Source: Candidatus Levybacteria bacterium RIFCSPHIGHO2_01_FULL_38_26
GTDB lineage: Bacteria > Patescibacteriota > Microgenomatia > Levybacterales > UBA12049
DNA: 60,856 nt
NCBI GenBank assembly: GCA_001782075.1
Contig: MFNO01000004.1
Location: 1-60,856, forward strand
Direction of reading: 5' to 3'
In this document: in pieces, positions 4,873 to 53,008 of the stretch
Layout of the letters: every line of letters starts with the position of its first letter
How positions within the stretch are numbered: position 1 is the stretch's first letter
The notes under the pieces: generated by a model
Told to the model about the DNA's origin: nothing
The model's database searches: none
The model's input: the letters and a program-made list of their open reading frames with translations, nothing else
Program-made: the position numbers and the translations under genes

Positions 4873-5303
4873 GATTTTTTCCAACCTCTGTCTTTTGATT
4901 TTCTTATTTCTTCAGTCTCGTCAGGTCTATTATAATCATCTTCCAGCCGATAAGTCGTGCCTATTTCTGGCGTTGAAACTTCCAAAATATCACAATCTGT
5001 TATTCCAGCCAAACGATGCCTTTGTCCTATTGCTGTCGTATATCCTTTGCCTAATTCGAGCTCTGTTTCTATTAGTTCTCCCTCTGGATTGTCCCAGATA
5101 ACTTTTCCGCGGCCTTTGACAAGCCACCAGCTTTCTGTTTTTTGGTCATGATACTGAAGCGACAATCTTTTGCCCGCCTCGATGTGCAGCAACTTTCCCA
5201 TATATGGTTGATATTCTGGCACAAAATGAATCTCATATCCCCAGGGTTTATCAACACGTTTTACAAAAGAAATGATTGAAGGGCTTTTTTTGCCAGCGTT
5301 CAT
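4869..5303 (-). CDS. Cupin protein (mannose-6-phosphate isomerase C-terminal-like)
   Basis: KPWG, RLSLQYH..KTESW, GQRHRL, LEVSTP, RLEDDYNR. Confidence 0.85.
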   Translation of the reverse strand: MNAGKKSPSIISFVKRVDKPWGYEIHFVPEYQPYMGKLLHIEAGKRLSLQYHDQKTESWWLVKGRGKVIWDNPEGELIETELELGKGYTTAIGQRHRLAGITDCDILEVSTPEIGTTYRLEDDYNRPDETEEIRKSKDRGWKKS

Positions 5304-27082: not shown

Positions 27083-27155
27083 GTCCTTCGACTTGGCTTC
27101 GGTAAACTCAGCCTCCCTCAGGACACTTCTCCTTTGCTTCGCGCAGTCGAAGTGT
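27083..27155. repeat. Two palindromic hairpins between the tRNA 3' end and the GIY-YIG gene
   Basis: gtccttcgac...ctcaggac (with nested ggcttcgg...cagcc) and acacttc...gaagtgt. Confidence 0.7.
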
Positions 27156-27417
27156 TGCGGGGCTGGTATCGAAACCAGACTATGAGATTATGCATTTGTT
27201 TCTCCAATTACTTGGAGTGTCGGACTATATCTTCTCCGATGTTACATCGGAGCTCAGCGTGTAGTCTCTACGGTGTCCCCGATTAAATCGAGGTTCCCTC
27301 GGTATTGTCCTTCGCGACATCTCAGGAGTTCACCGATATAGCTGAGTACTATTCTCAATATTTCTATCAAGATGGCCCATTTTGTTAAGCCTCATGTGCG
27401 CCTTACACTACCCCGCG
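27155..27417 (-). tRNA. tRNA-Met(CAT), initiator-type, split by a group I intron (exons 27417-27388 and 27192-27155)
   Basis: Spliced CGCGGGG...TGAGG-CT^CATAA-TCTCA...CCCCGCA-A folds as a cloverleaf with a C1:A72 mismatch; CCA not encoded. Confidence 0.88.
27193..27387 (-). ncRNA. Group I self-splicing intron, 195 nt, no ORF
   Basis: P1 GGCU/GGCC with U-G pair, P3 CTCAGC/GCTGAG, P7 GACTA/TAGTC, J8/7 AAGATA, GNRA loops on P2 and P9, terminal G. Confidence 0.92.
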
Positions 27418-27529: not shown

Positions 27530-28213
27530 ATGGCTAAATCATTACTTAGGCTAGAGGCTCGTAAGCTACGTAAAAAAGGACTGAGTGTTAAAAGAATTGC
27601 TCAATATCTAAAAATTGCCAAGAGCTCAGCAAGCATCTGGACTAGAGATATTATTTTAACTGTAGAACAACTAGAGAATCTAAGAAAATCGAGCTTAGAA
27701 GGCGCAGAACGCGGACGCATCAAAAATGCCTTGCTTCAGAAAGAAAGATGGAAAAGAAAGATGGAAACTTTCAAGAAATCAGGAATAAAGAGTATAGGAA
27801 AATTAACTGATAGGGAATTTCTGATTGCGGGACTTGCTCTGTATTGGGGTGAGGGATACAAAAAAGGAAGAAGACTCCAGTTATGCAATTCAGATCCAAA
27901 AATGATAAAATTTTTGCTACTTTGGTTACAACGATGTTTTTCTATAAGTAGCTTGGACATACGATGTCGAGTAGGAATAAATTACATACATATTAAGAGG
28001 GAAAATATTGTTAAGGAATACTGGTCAAGAATTACAAGTGTTCCCCTAGCCCAATTCACAAGAACAAGCTTTAAGAAAGTAGAAAATAAGAAGCTATATG
28101 ATAATTTTAATGATCATTATGGTACGCTGTCAGTCGAGATTGTACAGCCTTCCCGCTTTTATGGTAAAATCATAGGACTTATTGACGGTTTACATGCAAA
28201 TATGCCAGGGTAG
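27530..28213 (+). CDS. HTH plus degenerate LAGLIDADG-like domain protein (tRNA-adjacent)
   Basis: ARKLRKKGLSVKRIAQYLKIAKSSASIW (HTH); IAGLALYWGEG...NSDPKMIKF; stop codon lies inside the next tRNA. Confidence 0.7.
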   Translation: MAKSLLRLEARKLRKKGLSVKRIAQYLKIAKSSASIWTRDIILTVEQLENLRKSSLEGAERGRIKNALLQKERWKRKMETFKKSGIKSIGKLTDREFLIAGLALYWGEGYKKGRRLQLCNSDPKMIKFLLLWLQRCFSISSLDIRCRVGINYIHIKRENIVKEYWSRITSVPLAQFTRTSFKKVENKKLYDNFNDHYGTLSVEIVQPSRFYGKIIGLIDGLHANMPG

Positions 28214-28276
28214 CTCAGTGGTAGTAGCAACAGTATCATAAACTGTAGGTCGTGGGTTCGATCCCCACCCCTGGTA
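28204..28276 (+). tRNA. tRNA with CAT anticodon (elongator Met or Ile2)
   Basis: GCCAGGG/CCCTGGT acceptor, ACAGT-ATCATAA-ACTGT anticodon arm, GTGGG-TTCGATC-CCCAC T arm. Confidence 0.92.
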
Positions 28277-28290
28277 CAAAAGAAATTAAA

Positions 28291-33193: not shown

Positions 33194-33246
33194 ATGCAAT
33201 AGATTATTGACAAACTGTGATATAATATTTGTTGACAATTTAAAAA

Positions 33247-33559
33247 GAAGCGCTGATCCGGAATTTTGGAACCGGGGAGGGAGGCACAAGACTGCGCTTC
33301 CCGCGCTTAGCAAAATTAATAATGCACTGAGGCGAAACAGTAAAAGTCAGCAACATGTGTCGTAGTAACGGAGCATGTCATGAATAAGGTTAACTTATTC
33401 CATCTGACTATATCCCTGGCGACAGGGATTTTTAATGGTTAAGTTAACAAAGCAGGGTGGCACCATGGTTCGACAGACTCACCATAAACGGGTCTGACAA
33501 CCGTCCTTGTAAGATTTCAATCTTAATTTGAGATTGAGTTTTACAAGGGCGGTTTTTTT
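33247..33559 (+). promoter_or_regulatory. T-box riboswitch leader, probably Trp-specific
   Basis: AGGG-TGGCACC bulge with downstream CCGTCCTT; overlapping terminator; GATCCGG...TGGAA-CCGGGGAG short Stem I; lies upstream of trp genes. Confidence 0.75.
33499..33559 (+). terminator. Intrinsic terminator of the T-box leader
   Basis: ccgtccttgtaa...ttacaagggcgg followed by T7. Confidence 0.85.
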
Positions 33560-33660
33560 GTGCACCATTGGTAGATTTATAAACAGTGTGCAATCCGCCA
33601 TAAAGCGCTCCATGAGCCGCGTTGCGAATAGTAGGTAAGGCGAATGGGAAGCTTAGGAGG

Positions 33661-33993
33661 ATGTTAGAGCAGATTATGAAAGAAAGAAGAAGTTATCAAA
33701 ATGAACTAGCCTTTAGAGCTGGCGATGCTTTGCCTTTTAATGTTAAGGATCCAAATAAAGATCAGAATATTGTTAAAGGCGCAGTAAGAGTAGTTTTGGA
33801 TGATATGTGTCAAATACAAAGTAGGAGAGGGACAATAATTTACCCTCATCAATTGTCTGAGCGCGAGGTAAATATATTACGTAGACAGCTCTTTAGACAT
33901 GGATTAGGGAAAAGAGTTGAGGCCATTGTTCCAGTTAGACTCGAAGAAGGCATGGGAACAGAAATTTTGATAGCGAAGAAGAAAAGGGGGTGA
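33661..33993 (+). CDS. Hypothetical protein
   Basis: AGGAGG directly before ATG 33661 (alternative start 33676); first ORF after the T-box. Confidence 0.55.
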   Translation: MLEQIMKERRSYQNELAFRAGDALPFNVKDPNKDQNIVKGAVRVVLDDMCQIQSRRGTIIYPHQLSEREVNILRRQLFRHGLGKRVEAIVPVRLEEGMGTEILIAKKKRG

Positions 33994-33999
33994 AAATAT

Positions 34000-34308
34000 A
34001 TGAGCATAGAATATGCGGGATTACCCAGGGAAACAATTTTAAGACTCATATATCCAGATTATGCTGGACATTTAAGAAGAACAAAAATACATAATAATGG
34101 ACAGCATAAATCCGAAAGAAATAAACAGCGTGTTATAGAACATAAGCTTAAGCGAAAAAGAGACATTTCAAGCTCTAATCATAGAATCGTTGATTCAACA
34201 TTACGACCAGTTACCCTTGAAGGCTTAAGAGAATGTTTGCCAAAAGTAGGAGTTATTTTTTGTATCAAAACCAGTACAAATGATAATGTTGATCCTTTAG
34301 GTAGATAA
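34000..34308 (+). CDS. Hypothetical basic protein
   Basis: ORF packed between neighbours with a GGGGTG SD-like sequence; no recognised motif. Confidence 0.45.
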   Translation: MSIEYAGLPRETILRLIYPDYAGHLRRTKIHNNGQHKSERNKQRVIEHKLKRKRDISSSNHRIVDSTLRPVTLEGLRECLPKVGVIFCIKTSTNDNVDPLGR

Positions 34309-34317
34309 GGAACTTAT

Positions 34318-35172
34318 ATGAAAAATAGATTAACAGTTTTTGGAACAATTGAATTTGGGAGAGCAAGATTTATCAATAAGACTTATTCAGAGACGTATAT
34401 AGGCGGTAATGGCGTTCTTGCAAGTCTTGCTGCAGCTAAGTATGCAAAAGTTGATTTAGTAGGGATAATCGGTAGCGATATGAATATTAAAAAACTGGCA
34501 AAATCACTAGGAAAAAACATAGGCATAAAGAATGTACAACAGTTAAAAGGCAAAAGCTTTAATTATGGGGCAATTTATGATCCTGTAAATTTTGATTTGG
34601 TTGATGAGGAAATAGAATTTGGAGTTTATGGATCGTATGTTCCTCATGTTTTGAATCGTGAAGCTCAACTATCAAGATATGTTCTTTTCAGCGGTTCGAA
34701 TCCGCGTTTTAGTCTTGGCATATTAAAACAAATTGAAAAACCTGAATACGTGGCAGTTAGTACTCTTTTTTATCACTTAAAAAATAATTTTACGCATGCT
34801 TTAGATTTAATAGAGTCAGCAACATATTTATTTACCAACTCTAAAGAATACGACTACCTAGTTAGCAAAATTGAAAAAAATTTATTCAGTCGTTTTAAGA
34901 GACTTAAATATATCTTTAAGACGAAAGGCGTAAATGGGGTCGAGGTGATATCTGCTAATGACTCGCGTAATTTCAAACTTTCTAAAAAAGTTAATCCCAA
35001 AGATCCAACAAACGCAGGGGACGTTTTTGTGGGAGCTGTTATGGGAATGATTGCTGCAGGTTTTGACATAGAAAAAGACATTAAAAAAATTATTGATTCA
35101 GCTCAACGTGAGGCGACAAAGGTTATTGTAAATGATAAATATTATCGCTTAAAAGCAAAAGGAAATATATGA
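34318..35172 (+). CDS. PfkB/ribokinase family kinase
   Basis: GGNG, VGIIGSD, FTNSKE, TKGVNG, DPTNAGDVF. Confidence 0.88.
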   Translation: MKNRLTVFGTIEFGRARFINKTYSETYIGGNGVLASLAAAKYAKVDLVGIIGSDMNIKKLAKSLGKNIGIKNVQQLKGKSFNYGAIYDPVNFDLVDEEIEFGVYGSYVPHVLNREAQLSRYVLFSGSNPRFSLGILKQIEKPEYVAVSTLFYHLKNNFTHALDLIESATYLFTNSKEYDYLVSKIEKNLFSRFKRLKYIFKTKGVNGVEVISANDSRNFKLSKKVNPKDPTNAGDVFVGAVMGMIAAGFDIEKDIKKIIDSAQREATKVIVNDKYYRLKAKGNI

Positions 35173-35957
35173 AAAAAACAACAACTATATTGGATAAAAT
35201 AATAAAAAATAAAAAACTAGAATTGACAGCTGCAAAGAAAGAAGTTCCTTTAAAGTATCTTAAAAACTCAATAAAAAAGAGAAATATAAGAAGTTTTAGC
35301 AATGCAATAGGGAAAAAGAATAAGCTTAATTTAATTGCCGAAATTAAAAAATCATCTCCGTCAGGTGGTTTGATAAGAAAAGATTTTAATCATGTTTCAA
35401 TAGCAACAGAATATCAACATTCTGGTTTGGTAGATGCAATTTCTGTGCTGACAGAAAAAAGATATTTTCAGGGAGATATTAAGTTTATAAAGGATATTAA
35501 AAAAATTACTCCAATTCCAATATTAAGAAAAGATTTTATTTTTGATGAGTATCAAATATATGAATCATATCTTGCAGAAGCAGATGCATTATTACTTATA
35601 GTTGCAGTTTTAGACCCATCGGAGTTAAAGCGCTTACTTAGCCTTACTCATAAATTAGGCATGGATGCTTTAGTAGAGATTCATTCAGAAAAAGAAATAG
35701 AGATTGCATTAAAAGCAGGAACTAGAATTATTGGAATTAATGCGCGAGATTTGAAAACATTCAAAGTTAACAATGCTTTGTTTGGGAGATTGTCTAGATA
35801 CATTCCTAAGGGAATTATTAAAGTTGCTGAGTCCGGCTTAGGACAAAGAAGAGATTTGGAAAATGTCTATAGGGCAGGAGCAAATGCAGCTTTGATTGGA
35901 ACATCTATTTTAGAAGCAAAAGATATAAAAATTAAGTTGAGAGAATTAGCGGGTTAA
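35169..35957 (+). CDS. trpC: Indole-3-glycerol phosphate synthase
   Basis: IAEIKKSSPS, ISVLTE, LRKDF, LVEIH, GINARDL, VAESG. Confidence 0.96.
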   Translation: MKKTTTILDKIIKNKKLELTAAKKEVPLKYLKNSIKKRNIRSFSNAIGKKNKLNLIAEIKKSSPSGGLIRKDFNHVSIATEYQHSGLVDAISVLTEKRYFQGDIKFIKDIKKITPIPILRKDFIFDEYQIYESYLAEADALLLIVAVLDPSELKRLLSLTHKLGMDALVEIHSEKEIEIALKAGTRIIGINARDLKTFKVNNALFGRLSRYIPKGIIKVAESGLGQRRDLENVYRAGANAALIGTSILEAKDIKIKLRELAG

Positions 35958-35961
35958 GACT

Positions 35962-36786
35962 ATGAATGAGTTGTTAAAAAGATATAGGGTAGAGGCGCAA
36001 AATGAGAATAGCCTAAGAGAAGTAAGGGAGATGATTATTGCCCCTGATACTCTTACCGTATTTGATTTTGACCATACAATGTTTAAGACTAGCATCTTTC
36101 ATAGAATGTCGTTTCAGGGAGTGCTTCATGCGTTGGGAAGATCGTTAGAAATTACGCCCGAATTAGGAGCAAAACTTAAAGGGGGAGGAGACGAGGAGAT
36201 ATTTGAAATATTGCTTGATGCTTCAGGGGGAACGGATAAGAATTTGCTCTTACGAGCAATTAATGAAAGAAAAAAGATCTTAATACAAGCAGTTAAAGCA
36301 GACGGAGACCTAGCTGCCTATTTTATGCCAGGCATACCAGATGCTATAAGAAGTTTAAGAGCTTGTGGTAAGAAAGTAGGTATTGCAAGCGCAAGTCCAG
36401 ATGGTTTTGTTCAAGAATTTGTTGCAAGAGTCAGTGTAGACGGAGTTAACATAAACGATGTATTTATATCAGATGCTATTATTGGTGGTACAACAGTTAG
36501 GTCAGTTCACAATTCTCTTTCAGTTGATAGTGATTCGCCGTCCTCTCTTAATAAACCTAACCCTTTCTCTATTAGATATTCAGCAAATAAAATAAGCGGA
36601 GAACAGGGATTTCCAATTTTATACATTGGCGATGGAAGAGTAGATGCCTTGAGTGTCCGCGGAAATCAAAATATGGTTGGGTTGATAGTCAATGCGGAAG
36701 AACATGATTCATTGCGTAAAGAATTTGAGAGAGATGAAAATATTATAGTAGTAGGATCAATAGGGGAGGTTTTGAATGCAAAATAA
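35962..36786 (+). CDS. HAD-superfamily phosphatase
   Basis: VFDFDHT (motif I), IASAS (II), KPNP (III), YIGDGRVD (IV). Confidence 0.85.
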
Positions 36787-38005
36787 AGGGCATTTTGGAC
36801 AATTTGGGGGAAGATATGTGCCAGAAATGTTGATTCCAGCTCTTGAGGAATTGGAGAAGTCGTATTTTAAGGCAAAAAAAGATAAGGAGTTTCAGAAAAA
36901 GTTTAGTTATCATCTTAAAACCTATGCTGGTCGTCCAACTCCTTTGACATTTGCCAAAAATCTTACAGAAAAACTCGGAGGAGCAAAGATTTATCTTAAA
37001 AATGAAGGATTAAATCTAACAGGCGCGCATAAAATCACTCACTGTATTGGACAGGCACTCCTTGCAAAAAGAATGGGTAAGACAAGACTCATTGCAGAAA
37101 CAGGAGCAGGACAGCATGGCCTAGCAACGGCAACTGTTGCGGCAAAATTTGGATTTTCATGCACTATTTATATGGGAGAAGTAGATATTGTAAGGCAAAG
37201 GCCAAATGTTTTTCTCATGGAACAGCTTGGAGCAAAAGTAATTCCTGTTTCTTTTGGCAATAAAACTTTAAAAGACGCGGTTAATGCTGCTTTAAAAGAT
37301 TGGATTGAAAATGTAGATACAACGCATTATCTCTTGGGATCGGTTGTTGGTCCGCATCCATATCCTACTATGACTCGAGACTTTCAATCAGTTGTGGGAA
37401 GAGAAGTAAAAAGGCAAATTAAAAATGAAACTGGTAAATTGCCTGATTACATTATAGCTTGCGTTGGAGGAGGGAGTAATGCGATGGGTATTTTTACTGA
37501 ATTTATCAAAGAGAAAAATGTAGAGTTGATCGGGGTGGAAGCAGGCGGTAAAGGTAAGGCAGTAGGAGAAAATGCTATCAGATTCAATGGCGGGTCAATT
37601 GGAGTAGTAGAGGGGTATAAATCATATTTTTTACAAGACAGCGATGGACAAATTCAAAAAACTCACAGCATTTCGGCAGGATTAGATTATGCTGGAATAG
37701 GACCAGAGCTTGCATACTTAAAAGAAAAAGGAAGAGTAAAATTTACATCCGCTACAGATGCAGAGGCTTTAGGCGCATTTGATATTTTGGCAAAGACAGA
37801 AGGTATTATTCCTGCCTTAGAATCTTCTCATGCGGTAGCAGAAGCTATAAAACTTGCTCCAAAACTGAAAAAAAGTGACGTAATTGTCGTAAATCTTTCA
37901 GGTCGTGGAGACAAGGATTTGTTTATCTTGGCAAAAGCTTTGGGAGATGATAAGTTTATGGATTTTTTGAAAAGTTATATTAATGATGATGAACAAAATA
38001 GATAA
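36776..38005 (+). CDS. trpB: Tryptophan synthase beta chain
   Basis: [47 protein letters not shown]. Confidence 0.98.
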
Positions 38006-38783
38006 GCGATTGCAGAAAACAAAAAAGGAGAAAAGACTAGGATTGATGACGCATGTTGTTGTCGGCTATCCTTCTTTGGCTAAAACATTTGATATTGTAA
38101 AAATTATGGAAAAAAATGGAGTAGATTTTGTTGAGCTTCAGATACCATTCTCTGATCCGTTAGCTGATGGTACAACTATTATGAAGGCTTGTGAGAGTGC
38201 GTTAAAAAATGGCACAAAAGTTAAAGATGCTTTTGATGTTGTGGAAAAGTTGTCTGGGGAAGTGAAGATTCCGCTTCTTTTCATGGCGTACTATAATACT
38301 GTGTTTAAATACGGAACAGAAAAGTTTTGCAAAGGCGCAAGTGCGGTTGGGATAGCAGGGCTTATTGTTCCTGATATGCCGATTGAAGAGGAACAGTGTG
38401 AACATTTTGACAAATATTGTAGAAAATATAATTTGAAGAATATCAAAGTTCTATCGCCATCTTCTACGGATGAACGTTTGGAAAAAAATGAAAAGGTTGC
38501 GAGTGGTTTTGTTTATTTTACCGCAAGACAGGGAATAACTGGAGCAAAAGATACATTGGATCCAAAAATCCAGATCTATCTTAAAAAAGTAAAAAAATAT
38601 TTTTCTATTCCAGTTGCAGTTGGATTTGGTATCTCAAAGAGGGAGCACATGAGAGCATTGCAACAGCATGCTGATATAGCAGTTGTTGGAAGTGCAATTA
38701 TTGAAGTAATCAATAAGTCTAAGGATCAGGACATAGAGAAAAATGTTAGGAGTTTTATAAAGAACTTAAAAATGGTAAACTAG
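37983..38783 (+). CDS. trpA: Tryptophan synthase alpha chain
   Basis: [39 protein letters not shown]. Confidence 0.97.
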
Positions 38784-38795
38784 GGGAGACTTTAT

Positions 38796-39776
38796 ATGAA
38801 AAAGCGAGTTTATTCTGGTATACGTGCTACAGGACGATTGCATCTGGGGAATTATTTGGGAGCGGTCAAGGGGATGCTTGCTTTGCAGGACGAGTATGAC
38901 TGCATTTTTTCTGTGGTTGACTCCCATACTATTACTGTTCCCTACGATCCAAAAACACTCAAGCAATCGGTCCGTGAGATAATATTGGATTATTTAGCAG
39001 CCGGACTTGATCCTAAGAAGTGTCATTTGGAGATTCAGTCAATGGTGCCGCAGCATATAGAGCTTTCCTATTATCTTGCAACTATTTATCCTGTTTCACG
39101 TCTTGAAGATTTGCCTACATACAAAGACAAAAAAGCTCAGTACCCAAAGTATGTGAACATGGGGCTTTTGTATTATCCGGTTCTTATGGCGGCAGACGTA
39201 TTGTTGTATAAGGGAGAATTGGTGCCCGTTGGGATAGACCAGGAGCCGCATCTTGAAGTAATGCGGGAAATCGCACGAAAGTTTAATGGTATGTTTGGGC
39301 AAACATTTCCTGAGCCGCAAAGATTTAAAACAGAAGGTGAATATGTGCCCTCGTTAGCAGGCGGGGGAAAGATGAGTAAGTCTGTTGAGGGGAGTTATAT
39401 TACTTTAACTGATGATTTGGAGACAATTAGAAAGCGTTTGGCAGCTGCTCCAACAGATAGCGGACAAATCGGCGGAGAGCTTCCAAAAGAGGGTGGAGTT
39501 GCGAACTTATTTAAACTGTTAAAACTACTAAAACTTGATGTTGAGTATAAAAAATTTGAACAGGATTACAGAGATAAAAAAATTCGCTACACAGAGCTGA
39601 AAGAGGTTTTGGCGAAGGCAATTTACGAAGAACTGCAGCCGTTTCAGGAGAAAAGAAAAATCTTCAAAGAAGATCCTAAACTTGTTGATGACATCATTGA
39701 TGAAGGTAACAGAAAGTGTCTTCAAATGGCAGATAGGACGATGGGGGAAGTGAAAAAGAAGATGGGGTTGATTTAG
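38796..39776 (+). CDS. trpS: Tryptophan--tRNA ligase
   Basis: TGRLHLGNYLG, YPVLMAAD, VPVGIDQ, KMSKS. Confidence 0.97.
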   Translation: MKKRVYSGIRATGRLHLGNYLGAVKGMLALQDEYDCIFSVVDSHTITVPYDPKTLKQSVREIILDYLAAGLDPKKCHLEIQSMVPQHIELSYYLATIYPVSRLEDLPTYKDKKAQYPKYVNMGLLYYPVLMAADVLLYKGELVPVGIDQEPHLEVMREIARKFNGMFGQTFPEPQRFKTEGEYVPSLAGGGKMSKSVEGSYITLTDDLETIRKRLAAAPTDSGQIGGELPKEGGVANLFKLLKLLKLDVEYKKFEQDYRDKKIRYTELKEVLAKAIYEELQPFQEKRKIFKEDPKLVDDIIDEGNRKCLQMADRTMGEVKKKMGLI

Positions 39777-51117: not shown

Positions 51118-52185
51118 ATGTTTTTAAAGTCCATTTCTCTTCAGAATTTCAGAAACTACACAAAATCAGAATTTAACTTTGATAAAAATACCACTCTTAT
51201 CATCGGTCCAAATGCCTCTGGCAAGACTAATTTTTTAGAAGCTATTTTTTTCCTGTCAAGAGGAGGGAGTCTTAAAACAGAAAAAGATGAACAAGTAGTG
51301 CGGTTTGGTGAAGAAATAGCCCGTCTTTCTGGCTTGATTGGCGAAGTCGGGCTTGAGGTTATAATAGCCAAAGCTGGAGGAGAAAGAAGTATAAATCAAA
51401 AGAAGTACAAGGTTAATGGAGTTAGTAAAAAAAGAATTGATTTTGTAGGTAATCTTCTTGCCGTGGTTTTTTCTCCCTTGGATTTGGATATGGTCGTTGG
51501 CTCACCTTCTTTGAGGAGAAATTTTCTAAACAGTGTATTGGAACAGACAGATATCGATTACAGAAAAAATCTTCTGGAATTTACCAAGGCTTTGCGGCAG
51601 AGAAATGCTTTGCTTGAGAGAGTGAGAGAAAGTGGAGTCAGAGATGAGAGGCAGTTTGAGTATTGGGATAGTATTTTGATAAAAACAGGCACAGTTATTA
51701 CTAAAAAGAGGGAAGAGCTTATAAACTTTTTTAATAACTCCAAAAAGGACATTTTTGACTTTACGATCTTTTACGACAAAAGCATAATCTCAAAGGATAG
51801 ACTCTCGCAGTATAAAAATGCAGAATTGGGAGCAGGGGTAACTTTGGTTGGTCCACACAGAGATGATTTTTCGCTGCACATGTTTAACAACGAGATACAG
51901 ACTACCCATGATGTGAAATTCTTTGGATCGCGCGGGCAGCAAAGACTGGTGGTTTTACAGTTAAAACTTTTCGAGCTAGAGTTTATTGAAAAAAAACTTT
52001 CCGAGCGGCCAATTTTACTACTTGATGATATTTTTTCTGAGCTTGACAGGGAGCATATTAATTTAGTCCTTGAAATGCTAGGCAAACAACAGACGATTAT
52101 CACAACGACACATAGAGATCTGGCAGAAGGTGGATTCTTGAAGGAGGCAAGTGTGGTAGAATTGGTTAGTGATGGAAAAATTTAA
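51118..52185 (+). CDS. recF: DNA replication/repair protein RecF
   Basis: NFRNY, GPNASGKTN, GPHRDD, SRGQQR, LLLDDIFSELD. Confidence 0.96.
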   Translation: MFLKSISLQNFRNYTKSEFNFDKNTTLIIGPNASGKTNFLEAIFFLSRGGSLKTEKDEQVVRFGEEIARLSGLIGEVGLEVIIAKAGGERSINQKKYKVNGVSKKRIDFVGNLLAVVFSPLDLDMVVGSPSLRRNFLNSVLEQTDIDYRKNLLEFTKALRQRNALLERVRESGVRDERQFEYWDSILIKTGTVITKKREELINFFNNSKKDIFDFTIFYDKSIISKDRLSQYKNAELGAGVTLVGPHRDDFSLHMFNNEIQTTHDVKFFGSRGQQRLVVLQLKLFELEFIEKKLSERPILLLDDIFSELDREHINLVLEMLGKQQTIITTTHRDLAEGGFLKEASVVELVSDGKI

Positions 52186-53008
52186 CCCCAGTTTGTTAAA
52201 AGAACTATACGAGCCATCAGCGGGTTCTCACAAAGGACAAAACGGGAAACTTTTGGTAATTGGCGGATCAAAGCTTTTTCATGCCGCGTCTTTGTGGGCG
52301 CTTAAGATATCCTCGAGAATTGTTGATATGGTTTTTTATTCTTCAGTTACCGAAAACAACGAAATTGTACAAAAAGCAAAGCGTGAGTTTGGAGATGGAA
52401 TTGTAGTAAAACGAAGCCAAATAGACTCGTACGCAGAAGAAGCGGATTGTATTTTGATTGGCCCTGGTCTTCCAAGATTTGAAGGACAAGAAGAGGGTGA
52501 TGATGATACAAAAACACTCACTGAAAGTTTATTAAAGAAGTATCCGCATAAAAAATGGGTTATCGATGGCGGAAGCCTTCAGACGATTGATCCTAAGTTT
52601 ATTCCCAAAAATGCCATACTTACGCCTCATAGAAAAGAGTTCGAGAAGCTCTTCAAAGTCAAAAGTCAAAAGTCAAAAGTTGACGAAGAATATGTTCAGG
52701 AGATGGCGAAGAAGTACAACTGCATTATTCTTTTGAAAGGCAAGGAAGATATTGTTTGTTCGCCAACTGAATGTGTAAGAATAATTGGTGGCAATGCGGG
52801 GATGACAAAAGGAGGAACAGGAGACGTACTAGCTGGTTTGGTGGCAGCCTTGTATTGCAAAAATGATGCATTTTTGAGCGCGTGCGCGGGATCATATATA
52901 AATAAAAAAGCAGGGGAGAAGCTTTTTGAAAAAGTCGGGTATTACTTTAATTCTTCAGATTTGGCGGATGAGATACCAAAAGTGATGAGACATCTGATAA
53001 TAAAATAA
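52172..53008 (+). CDS. nnrD: ADP/ATP-dependent NAD(P)H-hydrate dehydratase
   Basis: SHKGQNG, IGPGL, ILTPH..EF, GGTGDVLAG. Confidence 0.9.
   Translation: MEKFNPSLLKELYEPSAGSHKGQNGKLLVIGGSKLFHAASLWALKISSRIVDMVFYSSVTENNEIVQKAKREFGDGIVVKRSQIDSYAEEADCILIGPGLPRFEGQEEGDDDTKTLTESLLKKYPHKKWVIDGGSLQTIDPKFIPKNAILTPHRKEFEKLFKVKSQKSKVDEEYVQEMAKKYNCIILLKGKEDIVCSPTECVRIIGGNAGMTKGGTGDVLAGLVAALYCKNDAFLSACAGSYINKKAGEKLFEKVGYYFNSSDLADEIPKVMRHLIIK

Follow-up and report, generated by a model that had tools for sequence, protein, structure and literature searches.

How can a cell make use of indole-3-glycerol phosphate synthase (IGPS, the product of trpC) when the enzymes that ordinarily supply its substrate are missing? 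The question is raised by an operon on contig MFNO01000004.1 of Candidatus Levybacteria bacterium RIFCSPHIGHO2_01_FULL_38_26, a member of the candidate phyla radiation (CPR), in which trpC, trpB, trpA and trpS stand together with genes for a PfkB-family kinase and a phosphatase-like protein of the haloacid dehalogenase (HAD) family. The stretch of DNA analysed (the window) is positions 1 to 60,856 of the contig, which is C4 in a genome assembly of 1.13 Mb and 38 contigs, 98.5% complete and with 0.29% contamination. An earlier note, made from the letters of the window, had proposed a tryptophan salvage operon behind a T-box, with a kinase that could phosphorylate imported intermediates to feed TrpC or TrpA. 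We find that the kinase is tied to the step before TrpC by gene linkage, by gene fusion and by co-distribution, in a genome where no trpE, trpG, trpD or trpF was found. We propose, with confidence that falls a little short of even, that the kinase makes the TrpC substrate, 1-(2-carboxyphenylamino)-1-deoxyribulose 5-phosphate (CdRP), from an adduct of anthranilate and a pentose that carries no phosphate, most probably the dephosphorylated compound CdR, bypassing phosphoribosyl pyrophosphate (PRPP), TrpD and TrpF.

The operon and its tryptophan genes

The whole unit, including its leader, spans positions 33246-39776 (+) of the window. Its parts are as follows.

33246..33561, + strand: predicted divergent Trp T-box leader, with core, terminator and a short putative stem I hairpin
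33622..33993, + strand: orfX1, 123 aa from a TTG start or 110 aa from the ATG at 33661, no family
34000..34308, + strand: orfX2, 102 aa, no family
34318..35172, + strand: PfkB-family kinase (PF00294 34.6 bits, cut-off 25.8)
35169..35957, + strand: trpC (NF001377 296.7 bits, cut-off 260; IGPS 264.7 bits)
35962..36786, + strand: HAD-IA (C1-cap) phosphatase-like gene (HAD_2 33.1 bits, cut-off 23.8; HAD and Hydrolase families also matched)
36776..38005, + strand: trpB, TrpB1 type (TIGR00263 610.3 bits, cut-off 392.45)
37983..38783, + strand: trpA (TIGR00262 247.7 bits, cut-off 102.35)
38796..39776, + strand: trpS (TIGR00233 296.2 bits, cut-off 176.75)

Two profile libraries bear out the families that the earlier note had assigned to this series of open reading frames (ORFs), from PfkB through trpC, HAD, trpB and trpA to trpS, and the overlaps that it described are also real. 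The stop codon of the kinase gene and the start codon of trpC have the letters ATGA in common, as both coordinates and letters show, and trpC is translationally coupled to the kinase gene through them; the HAD gene overlaps trpB by 11 nt, and trpB overlaps trpA by 23 nt. The G+C content of the kinase gene (0.33) and of trpC (0.30) is lower than that of the whole window (0.38), with the neighbouring genes also higher, which is consistent with joint acquisition of the pair.

TrpC, TrpB1, TrpA and tryptophanyl-tRNA synthetase (TrpRS) each score above the cut-off of the respective equivalog model, and trpS is the sole TrpRS gene detected by a tblastn search of the genome. The motifs AEIKKSSPS, LRKDF, VEIH, GINARDL, ESG and IGTS of TrpC align with those of solved IGPS structures and are invariant in all five copies of the module described below. 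Residues of this kind provide the catalytic Lys, Glu, Asn and Arg of IGPS and its phosphate-binding loops. Because the IGPS motifs are kept, including the phosphate-binding ESG and GTS loops, TrpC should require a phosphorylated substrate, CdRP.

Absence of the upstream pathway

The earlier note had seen no trpE, trpG, trpD or trpF in the window, and profile searches extend this absence beyond the window, to the 98.5%-complete genome. Absence was called from six-frame profile searches of the whole genome, with profiles that find their targets in 14 of 14 reference genomes (10 of 14 in the case of kynureninase). These searches gave no phosphoribosylanthranilate isomerase (PRAI, TrpF; PF00697), no Chorismate_bind protein (TrpE; PF00425), no HisA/PriA-type isomerase and no kynureninase, and nothing over the cut-off for TrpG (TIGR00566). 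There is likewise no trpD (TIGR01245, PF00591): the sole Glycos_transf_3 protein of the genome, which is also its only protein of the TrpD fold, is of the AMP/thymidine-phosphorylase type. It is encoded on another contig (G000:C26, L001 1246-2544 +), without a link to the module, and scores 463 bits with NF003338, 430 bits with AMP_phos (cut-off 535) and 38 bits with the trpD model. PRPP synthetase, on the other hand, is present. Because neither TrpE nor kynureninase is found, any anthranilate used by this organism must come from an external source.

The same genome-wide searches bear on two neighbouring areas of metabolism. No protein of Aminotran_5, the family to which SerC belongs, scores above the cut-off. 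The genome also yields no PdxS and no clear pyridoxal kinase, though TrpB depends on pyridoxal phosphate (PLP).

A rare PfkB kinase subfamily

The kinase belongs to the PfkB/ribokinase family by profile score and by fold, the latter matching 3kd6 with an E value of 2.7e-20, and its AlphaFold2 (AF2) model (pLDDT 93) is a confident ribokinase fold. The ribokinase family is defined by the motifs GG, NxxE and xAGD, the last of which contains the catalytic Asp. The corresponding letters are G29-G30, N-S-K-E177 and, within DPTNAGD, N232-A-G-D235, all of them invariant or nearly so, and with GG, NxxE and NAGD (Asp235) in place the kinase appears to be catalytically complete.

The nearest structures are 3kd6 from C. 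tepidum (TM 0.84, 22% identity), MjNK (2c49) and the adenosine kinase of M. tuberculosis, followed by ribokinases, and the PDB sequence matches to the kinase family profile are 3kd6 and 2c49 only. Among NCBIfam models the best matches are ribokinase and nucleoside kinase, with equivalog cut-offs that in all cases lie far above the score (40.4 vs 299.65 for ribokinase TIGR02152, 29.3 vs 450 for nucleoside kinase NF041164), and the ESM Atlas returned generic PfkB clusters only. The protein thus resembles the nucleoside kinases of the ribokinase family in its fold (TM 0.77-0.84) and catalytic motifs, but it is only 17-22% identical to them, has signatures of its own and is linked to trpC. These signatures characterize a wider clade of TrpC-linked kinases and consist of an N-terminal GT[IT][EQ], a GGNG, an NAGD (not GAGD) and a C-terminal DxYYR right before the TrpC domain; generic relatives are without them.

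Identity as a pyridoxal kinase was considered and is not supported, the kinase having no Phos_pyr_kin profile match. The genome-wide matches to the pyridoxal/HMP kinase profile (PF08543) fall in two other frames, not in 34318-35172. One of the two, a weak match at 52169-53008 (+) of the window, corresponds to NAD(P)H-hydrate dehydratase.

Comparative counts in this work refer to draft genomes and to a sample of the phylum. Close relatives of the kinase are exceedingly scarce: a word-indexed search of 5.8 billion proteins returned 17, a search of 1.84 billion representatives returned 19 at E<=1e-30, and a strong match is found in 1 of the 401 sampled genomes of the phylum, namely that of the window itself. 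Eight other genomes of the sample have generic PfkB proteins (73-98 bits, 24-27% identity), the genes for which have no adjoining trp genes within loci of roughly 3.7 kb. The kinase forms a very rare subfamily that is specific to the module. A distant relative, P0199 (578 aa), is fused to an HD domain (YfbR-like 5'-deoxynucleotidase) and represents another pairing of kinase and phosphohydrolase.

Linkage, fusion and distribution

The earlier note had named synteny with trpC, HAD and trpBA as a check on its reading, and the association does recur in other loci, one of which (L002) has a different gene order.

L002, Kaiserbacteria record: trpC-HAD-PfkB-trpB-trpA
L067, metagenome: T-box-PfkB-trpC-HAD-trpB...
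L068, metagenome: T-box-PfkB::IGPS (one 558-aa ORF)-HAD-trpB-trpA-trpS, preceded, like the operon of the window, by a murD-like gene
L004, Micrarchaeota record with archaeal-type neighbours: PfkB-trpC
L003, Patescibacteria record: locus starts inside the kinase gene

PfkB and trpC are adjacent or overlapping in the window, L067 and L004, and in L068 they are one gene, with no stop in the DNA between the PfkB and IGPS domains. PfkB::IGPS fusions are represented by four database proteins (P0027, P0028, P0029 and P0164), the last three of them additional to that of L068. P0028 (552 aa) and P0029 (537 aa) come from other sources, are 50-53% identical to the L068 protein and retain the motifs in each of the two domains; the fusion P0164 (546 aa) is far more divergent, with 116 bits to the kinase profile. 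The joining of IGPS to another enzyme of the same pathway is familiar from TrpD-TrpC, TrpC-TrpF and TrpD-TrpC-TrpF proteins, which are common. The fusion described here is of that kind, except that IGPS is joined to a PfkB kinase and that TrpD and TrpF are missing from the lineages concerned. TrpGD, TrpDC, TrpFB and TrpFC, and no PfkB-TrpC, are named in the main text of a survey of fusions in archaea (PMC11237513). In the archaeal genome that carries PfkB-trpC (G403; L004, L073), trpB-trpA are found on another contig, and the neighbouring genes encode an aIF5B-like GTPase, AMMECR1 and Ham1.

Distribution across genomes points in the same direction as linkage. IGPS is matched in 31 of the 401 sampled genomes, strongly in 23, including that of the window. 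PRAI is present in 17 of the other 22 genomes with strong matches and TrpD in 17 of the 22, with both absent in 3, and none of the 23 trpC loci of these genomes (examined over about 10 kb on each side, less at contig ends) contains a homologue of the module kinase or HAD. The kinase-bearing genomes number four (G000, which is that of the window, and G401, G402 and G403), and PRAI, TrpD and Chorismate_bind are found in 0/4, the absence being weaker evidence for G401-G403, the completeness of which is not stated. Solitary trpC genes, with no trpB or trpA within about 10 kb, were noted in several small genomes (L055, L058, L059, L060 and L066, family f48, in G042, G067, G091 and G172; L048 in G072), in which TrpD was not found and some of which are also without PRAI.

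The history of the association was traced in a TrpC tree of 31 rows, in which locus rows are tblastn segments and from which nothing was left out. Six of the eight kinase-linked TrpCs form one clade (support 89/89), with the archaeal copy nested inside; the two outside it are the TrpC of L002 and the TrpC domain of P0164, the latter paired with an ordinary TrpC (98/94). The kinase-linked label needs 3 changes on this tree, compared to a mean of 7.2 in shuffles, and 0/500 shuffles were as low. The tree suggests that the module moves horizontally, also between domains of life. It further suggests that the kinase has been joined to TrpC more than once, and independently in P0164, because the TrpC domain of that protein groups elsewhere.

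The HAD protein

The second unusual member of the operon is a HAD-IA protein, with the motifs D35-F-D37-x-T39, S143 (in GIASAS), K198 and G223-D224...D228 (GDGxxD), which are invariant in 10 of 10 sequences. Its AF2 model (pLDDT 86) has a C1 cap and looks like a generic HAD-IA sugar-phosphate phosphatase. The nearest structures are all C1-cap HAD-IA proteins: CbbY, beta-phosphoglucomutase (beta-PGM), the BT2127 pyrophosphatase, AlnB, HDHD1A and YniC. Fold, cap and the four catalytic motifs are common to the HAD protein and CbbY, beta-PGM, YniC, HDHD1A and AlnB. However, identity to these enzymes is 12-24%, the scores are below all curated cut-offs (22.3 vs 189.4 for beta-PGM TIGR01990 and 16.2 vs 144.15 for SerB TIGR00338), and the subfamily is confined to the module. 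The word-indexed search of 5.8 billion proteins returned 9 such proteins, and 1 of the 401 sampled genomes, again that of the window, has a match. By these counts the HAD is a dedicated, rare subfamily seen only in this module. A role as phosphoserine phosphatase was considered and is unlikely: the protein is restricted to the module, and there would be no phosphoserine for it to act on, because the genome has no Aminotran_5/SerC-type protein.

The leader and the front of the operon

The earlier note had placed a T-box in front of the operon, and this claim stands in its essentials, although the formal score does not support it. With the Rfam T-box model (RF00230) the leader reaches 15.7 bits, compared to a gathering score of 93, with E 0.2-0.8 for a match at 33318-33511 obtained under relaxed thresholds. 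It nevertheless has a conserved core, a predicted antiterminator with the UGGN bulge that in T-boxes pairs with NCCA of the tRNA, and a downstream terminator to compete with it. The core, AGGGUGGCACCAUGG, lies at 33454-33468 and includes a UGGC bulge, which we take to match the G73 discriminator of tRNA-Trp; the terminator hairpin and its U-run occupy 33499-33561 (-44 kcal/mol, z -6.1, 0/200 shuffles as good). Upstream of the Rfam alignment is a short hairpin (33257-33275), flanked by UGA and GAG, with the loop AAUUUUGGAA and UGG at 33267-33269.

Homologous leaders were found in both metagenomic loci. That of L068, right before the kinase gene, scores 32.4 bits, with E 0.0011 when 36 kb are searched and 7e-6 when the stretch is taken by itself; this, too, is below 93. 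It folds into a canonical antiterminator composed of a stem, a 7-nt UGGCACC bulge and a second stem; that of L067 has the core and terminator in common with the window. The putative stem I hairpins of the window and L068 differ in their stem letters, have UGA and GAG on their flanks in both loci and have UGG plus a purine in the loop, a comparison of two sequences only, with energies no better than those of shuffles (z -0.5 and -1.0). On the strength of its sequence and predicted folding, the leader is accepted as a divergent Trp T-box with a putative, strongly reduced stem I.

The UGG T-box and the presence of trpS in the operon tie the unit to the tryptophan supply. Regulation of trp and trpS genes by T-boxes is in itself ordinary. 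The trp and trpS leaders of Firmicutes likewise have a UGGN bulge in the core and an antiterminator and a terminator that exclude each other, and their stem I presents UGG, as the putative stem I would here. The difference is that this putative stem I is reduced to a short hairpin, with the codon in the loop at its tip, and that the scores (15.7 and 32.4 bits) are so far below the threshold of 93. T-boxes with an ultrashort stem I occur in Actinobacteria and provide a parallel to the reduced stem I. Two further observations concern the leaders of the other loci. In L002, the Kaiserbacteria copy, a terminator-like hairpin and U-run precede trpC (4950-5125), with no T-box match at E<=0.1, and this attenuator may be of another kind. 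In L068, a PIN-domain gene and a small ORF on the opposite strand lie upstream of the T-box.

The two ORFs of unknown family that the earlier note had at the head of the unit are present, but they do not belong to the conserved module. orfX1 and orfX2 encode basic proteins and stand between the T-box terminator and the kinase gene in the window only. Neither has a family in Pfam, NCBIfam, PHROGs or PADLOC or a paralogue in the genome, and the ESM Atlas gave no usable match for orfX1. They are apparently a lineage-specific insertion, because the leader abuts the kinase gene in L067 and L068; orfX1 is absent from both loci.

A candidate promoter element was read by eye just upstream of the leader:

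33218..33226, + strand: extended -10-like element, TGnTATAAT

The element is not listed by the consensus scan, there being no -35 at canonical spacing. Consensus scans for sigma-70 promoters and terminators gave no more sites than in shuffles, and the operon ends are not defined by them.

A possible route to CdRP

What, then, would the kinase phosphorylate? The simplest scheme has it act on CdR, because TrpD and TrpF are missing and the kinase is coupled or fused to TrpC. In this scheme, the operon, sensing tRNA-Trp through its UGG T-box, would couple the only TrpRS to a short pathway from TrpC to TrpA and TrpB. With ATP as donor, the kinase would phosphorylate an anthranilate-pentose adduct at its terminal (5-) hydroxyl. 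The likeliest adduct is the unphosphorylated Amadori compound 1-(2-carboxyphenylamino)-1-deoxyribulose (CdR), either scavenged as such or formed spontaneously from scavenged anthranilate and ribose. TrpC would then convert CdRP to indole-3-glycerol phosphate (IGP), from which TrpA and TrpB would make tryptophan with serine. The HAD may act as a phosphatase that releases free sugar from a pentose phosphate or nucleotide, or alternatively it might dephosphorylate CdRP or IGP to relieve an excess. What we infer here is which compound the kinase phosphorylates, where anthranilate or CdR comes from and what the HAD does. The earlier note had considered both carboxyphenylamino-deoxyribulose and indole-glycerol as compounds that the kinase might phosphorylate to feed TrpC or TrpA. 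The connection to the step before TrpC has held up, but indole-glycerol is disfavoured, and CdR or ribosyl-anthranilate is favoured over it because the use of indole-glycerol would make TrpC unnecessary.

The proposed reaction has precedents in chemistry and enzymology. CdR arises from anthranilate and ribose by Amadori rearrangement, and Doy and Gibson are said to have found, in 1959, that it is excreted by trpC mutants. The PfkB family includes FrlD, a fructoselysine 6-kinase. According to one report, anthranilate reacts spontaneously with glucose and xylose of the culture medium to give glycosyl adducts or Amadori products (PMC10832554), and FrlD, work on which is cited in PMC3781023, is an example of a kinase for such compounds. 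The likeness to FrlD is one of function rather than membership: the two were compared by reaction, not by sequence, and no FrlD-type model is among the NCBIfam matches of the kinase. As with FrlD and the fructosamine kinases, the terminal hydroxyl of a 1-amino-1-deoxy-ketose would be phosphorylated by an enzyme of the same superfamily, PfkB. FrlD, however, begins a catabolic route, in which the deglycase FrlB acts next, whereas the product here would be biosynthetic.

Several considerations weigh against CdR as the substrate. The nearest solved relatives of the kinase act on furanosides (nucleosides and ribose), and CdR is a 1-amino-1-deoxy-ketose. We know of no natural pool of CdR, nor of its occurrence as an environmental metabolite. 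Anthranilate and ribose 5-phosphate would give CdRP spontaneously within the cell, without any kinase, which weakens the version of the scheme that relies on a spontaneous adduct. There is no transporter encoded in the operon. The HAD, although it is a dedicated subfamily, has no necessary step in the scheme, and it was not found in the archaeal G403 or in G402. Fusion to TrpC is an imperfect guide, in that fused trp enzymes do not always catalyze consecutive steps, as in TrpG-TrpD. Finally, three of the four kinase-bearing genomes are those of unstated completeness.

Alternative explanations

Two alternatives keep the kinase in the service of TrpC but change its substrate. The furanoside preference of its relatives would be accommodated if it phosphorylated N-ribosylanthranilate, a nucleoside-like furanoside, to phosphoribosylanthranilate (PRA), with the Amadori step to CdRP occurring spontaneously or being catalyzed by TrpC or the HAD. 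In structure the nearest proteins are nucleoside kinases (3kd6 and 2c49), which also supply the only sequence matches in the PDB, the best NCBIfam matches are the ribokinase and nucleoside kinase models, and two dedicated enzymes (kinase and HAD) would stand in for two missing ones (TrpD and TrpF). Yet the genome has no PRAI or HisA/PriA-like isomerase, the TrpCs of the module are ordinary IGPS by sequence, and we know of no Amadori isomerase with a HAD fold. PRA is moreover very labile. The N-terminal Asp with which enzymes of the ribokinase type bind the ribose cis-diol is not evident in the kinase clade, where GT[IT][EQ] is found, and we regard this substrate as distinctly unlikely. Alternatively, the kinase and/or the HAD could make an activated pentose phosphate (for example ribose 1-phosphate, ribose 1,5-bisphosphate or ribulose 1,5-bisphosphate) that condenses with anthranilate, spontaneously or by way of the AMP-phosphorylase homologue, amounting to a PRPP-independent substitute for TrpD and possibly TrpF. 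This idea gives the HAD a job and finds a ready candidate in the phosphorylase-type protein of the TrpD fold. PfkB-family ribose-1-phosphate kinases and ketose-phosphate C1-kinases exist, and the best HAD structures include CbbY, a pentulose-1,5-bisphosphate phosphatase, and beta-phosphoglucomutases. We nonetheless consider it unlikely: the kinase is fused to TrpC rather than to a transferase, the phosphorylase gene is on another contig and without a link to the module, the archaeal version has no HAD, and the HAD itself is far below the beta-PGM cut-off.

A different sort of alternative takes the kinase and HAD out of the tryptophan pathway. The operon could serve indole salvage through TrpBA only, as known for trpBA in chlamydiae, with TrpC a relic and with the kinase and HAD engaged in cofactor (pyridoxal), serine, sugar or nucleoside metabolism. 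Kinases of the ribokinase superfamily are repeatedly paired with HAD phosphatases in vitamin salvage, and the lack of PdxS and of a clear PdxK in the genome would leave room for a pyridoxal-related function. TrpC, however, keeps all catalytic motifs in every module copy and is the fusion partner of the kinase in four proteins. PLP and serine are needed in the other 400 sampled genomes as well, yet neither the kinase nor the HAD subfamily is present there, the kinase has no Phos_pyr_kin match, and no Aminotran_5 protein is above the cut-off; we judge this explanation unlikely. The remaining alternative, that the pathway is complete, with trpD, trpF and trpE in assembly gaps or replaced by unrecognizable analogues, draws on the draft state of the genome (38 contigs) and on the unstated completeness of G401-G403. 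It appears very improbable in view of the 98.5% completeness and 0.29% contamination, of the profile controls in 14/14 reference genomes, and of the same absence in 4/4 kinase-bearing genomes and in few other IGPS-bearing ones.

Comparison with known systems

Phosphorylation of CdR by the kinase is the reading that we prefer, and it can be set beside the partial trp operons of chlamydiae, which are trpRBA for the use of indole and kynU-prsA-trpDCFBA for the use of kynurenine. The parallels are a reduced genome, the retention of distal tryptophan steps only and an outside precursor. Those chlamydial operons that contain trpC, however, retain trpD and trpF together with PRPP synthesis and are entered through kynureninase, whereas trpD, trpF and kynU are all absent here, a novel kinase and a HAD are present instead, and control is by a T-box and not by TrpR.

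The earlier note did not recognize the arrangement as a described pathway, and in our literature searches neither a trp cluster with such a kinase or HAD nor the salvage of CdR was found described. Already known are shortened salvage operons such as those of chlamydiae, T-boxes on trp and trpS genes, and fusions of TrpC to TrpD or TrpF. The new elements are a dedicated PfkB kinase and HAD in place of TrpD and TrpF, the PfkB::IGPS fusion, and the presence of the module in CPR bacteria and in a DPANN-type archaeon. A broader form of the CdR proposal is that an entry into the pathway that is independent of PRPP, TrpD and TrpF has spread by horizontal transfer and is common to CPR bacteria and at least one DPANN archaeon. 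In it, a dedicated Amadori-compound kinase, fused to TrpC in some cases, and a dedicated HAD would turn scavenged anthranilate and pentose, or scavenged CdR, into CdRP. This we offer tentatively, as plausible but on the doubtful side of even.

Surroundings of the operon

Downstream of trpS lie yidD and then ftsH, and a 309-aa ORF upstream has no match in PHROGs or PADLOC. Elsewhere in the window, a group I intron (RF00028, 68.6 bits, 27201-27397) apparently interrupts the anticodon loop of a tRNA(CAU) gene. The exon ends resemble the acceptor, anticodon and T arms, and ARAGORN does not call the gene. The coordinates of this gene and of an intact one nearby are as follows.

27140..27417, - strand: tRNA(CAU) gene, apparently split by a group I intron
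28204..28277, + strand: intact tRNA-Met(CAT)

Implications

Because of their seemingly incomplete pathways, CPR and DPANN organisms are commonly taken for amino-acid auxotrophs. The organism studied here probably produces tryptophan itself, starting from a late precursor that it scavenges, because the "incomplete" trp pathway is accompanied by two dedicated, unannotated enzymes and a tRNA-Trp sensor. If the kinase is indeed a CdR or ribosyl-anthranilate kinase, its activity would be new to enzymology, and so would this way into a textbook pathway, which might also be used in engineering as a module that does without PRPP. A PfkB protein with NAGD and DxYYR, encoded beside trpC or fused to it, would then be a marker with which pathway predictions could be corrected, and a concrete metabolite, anthranilate or CdR, could be named as one that episymbionts take from their hosts or neighbours.

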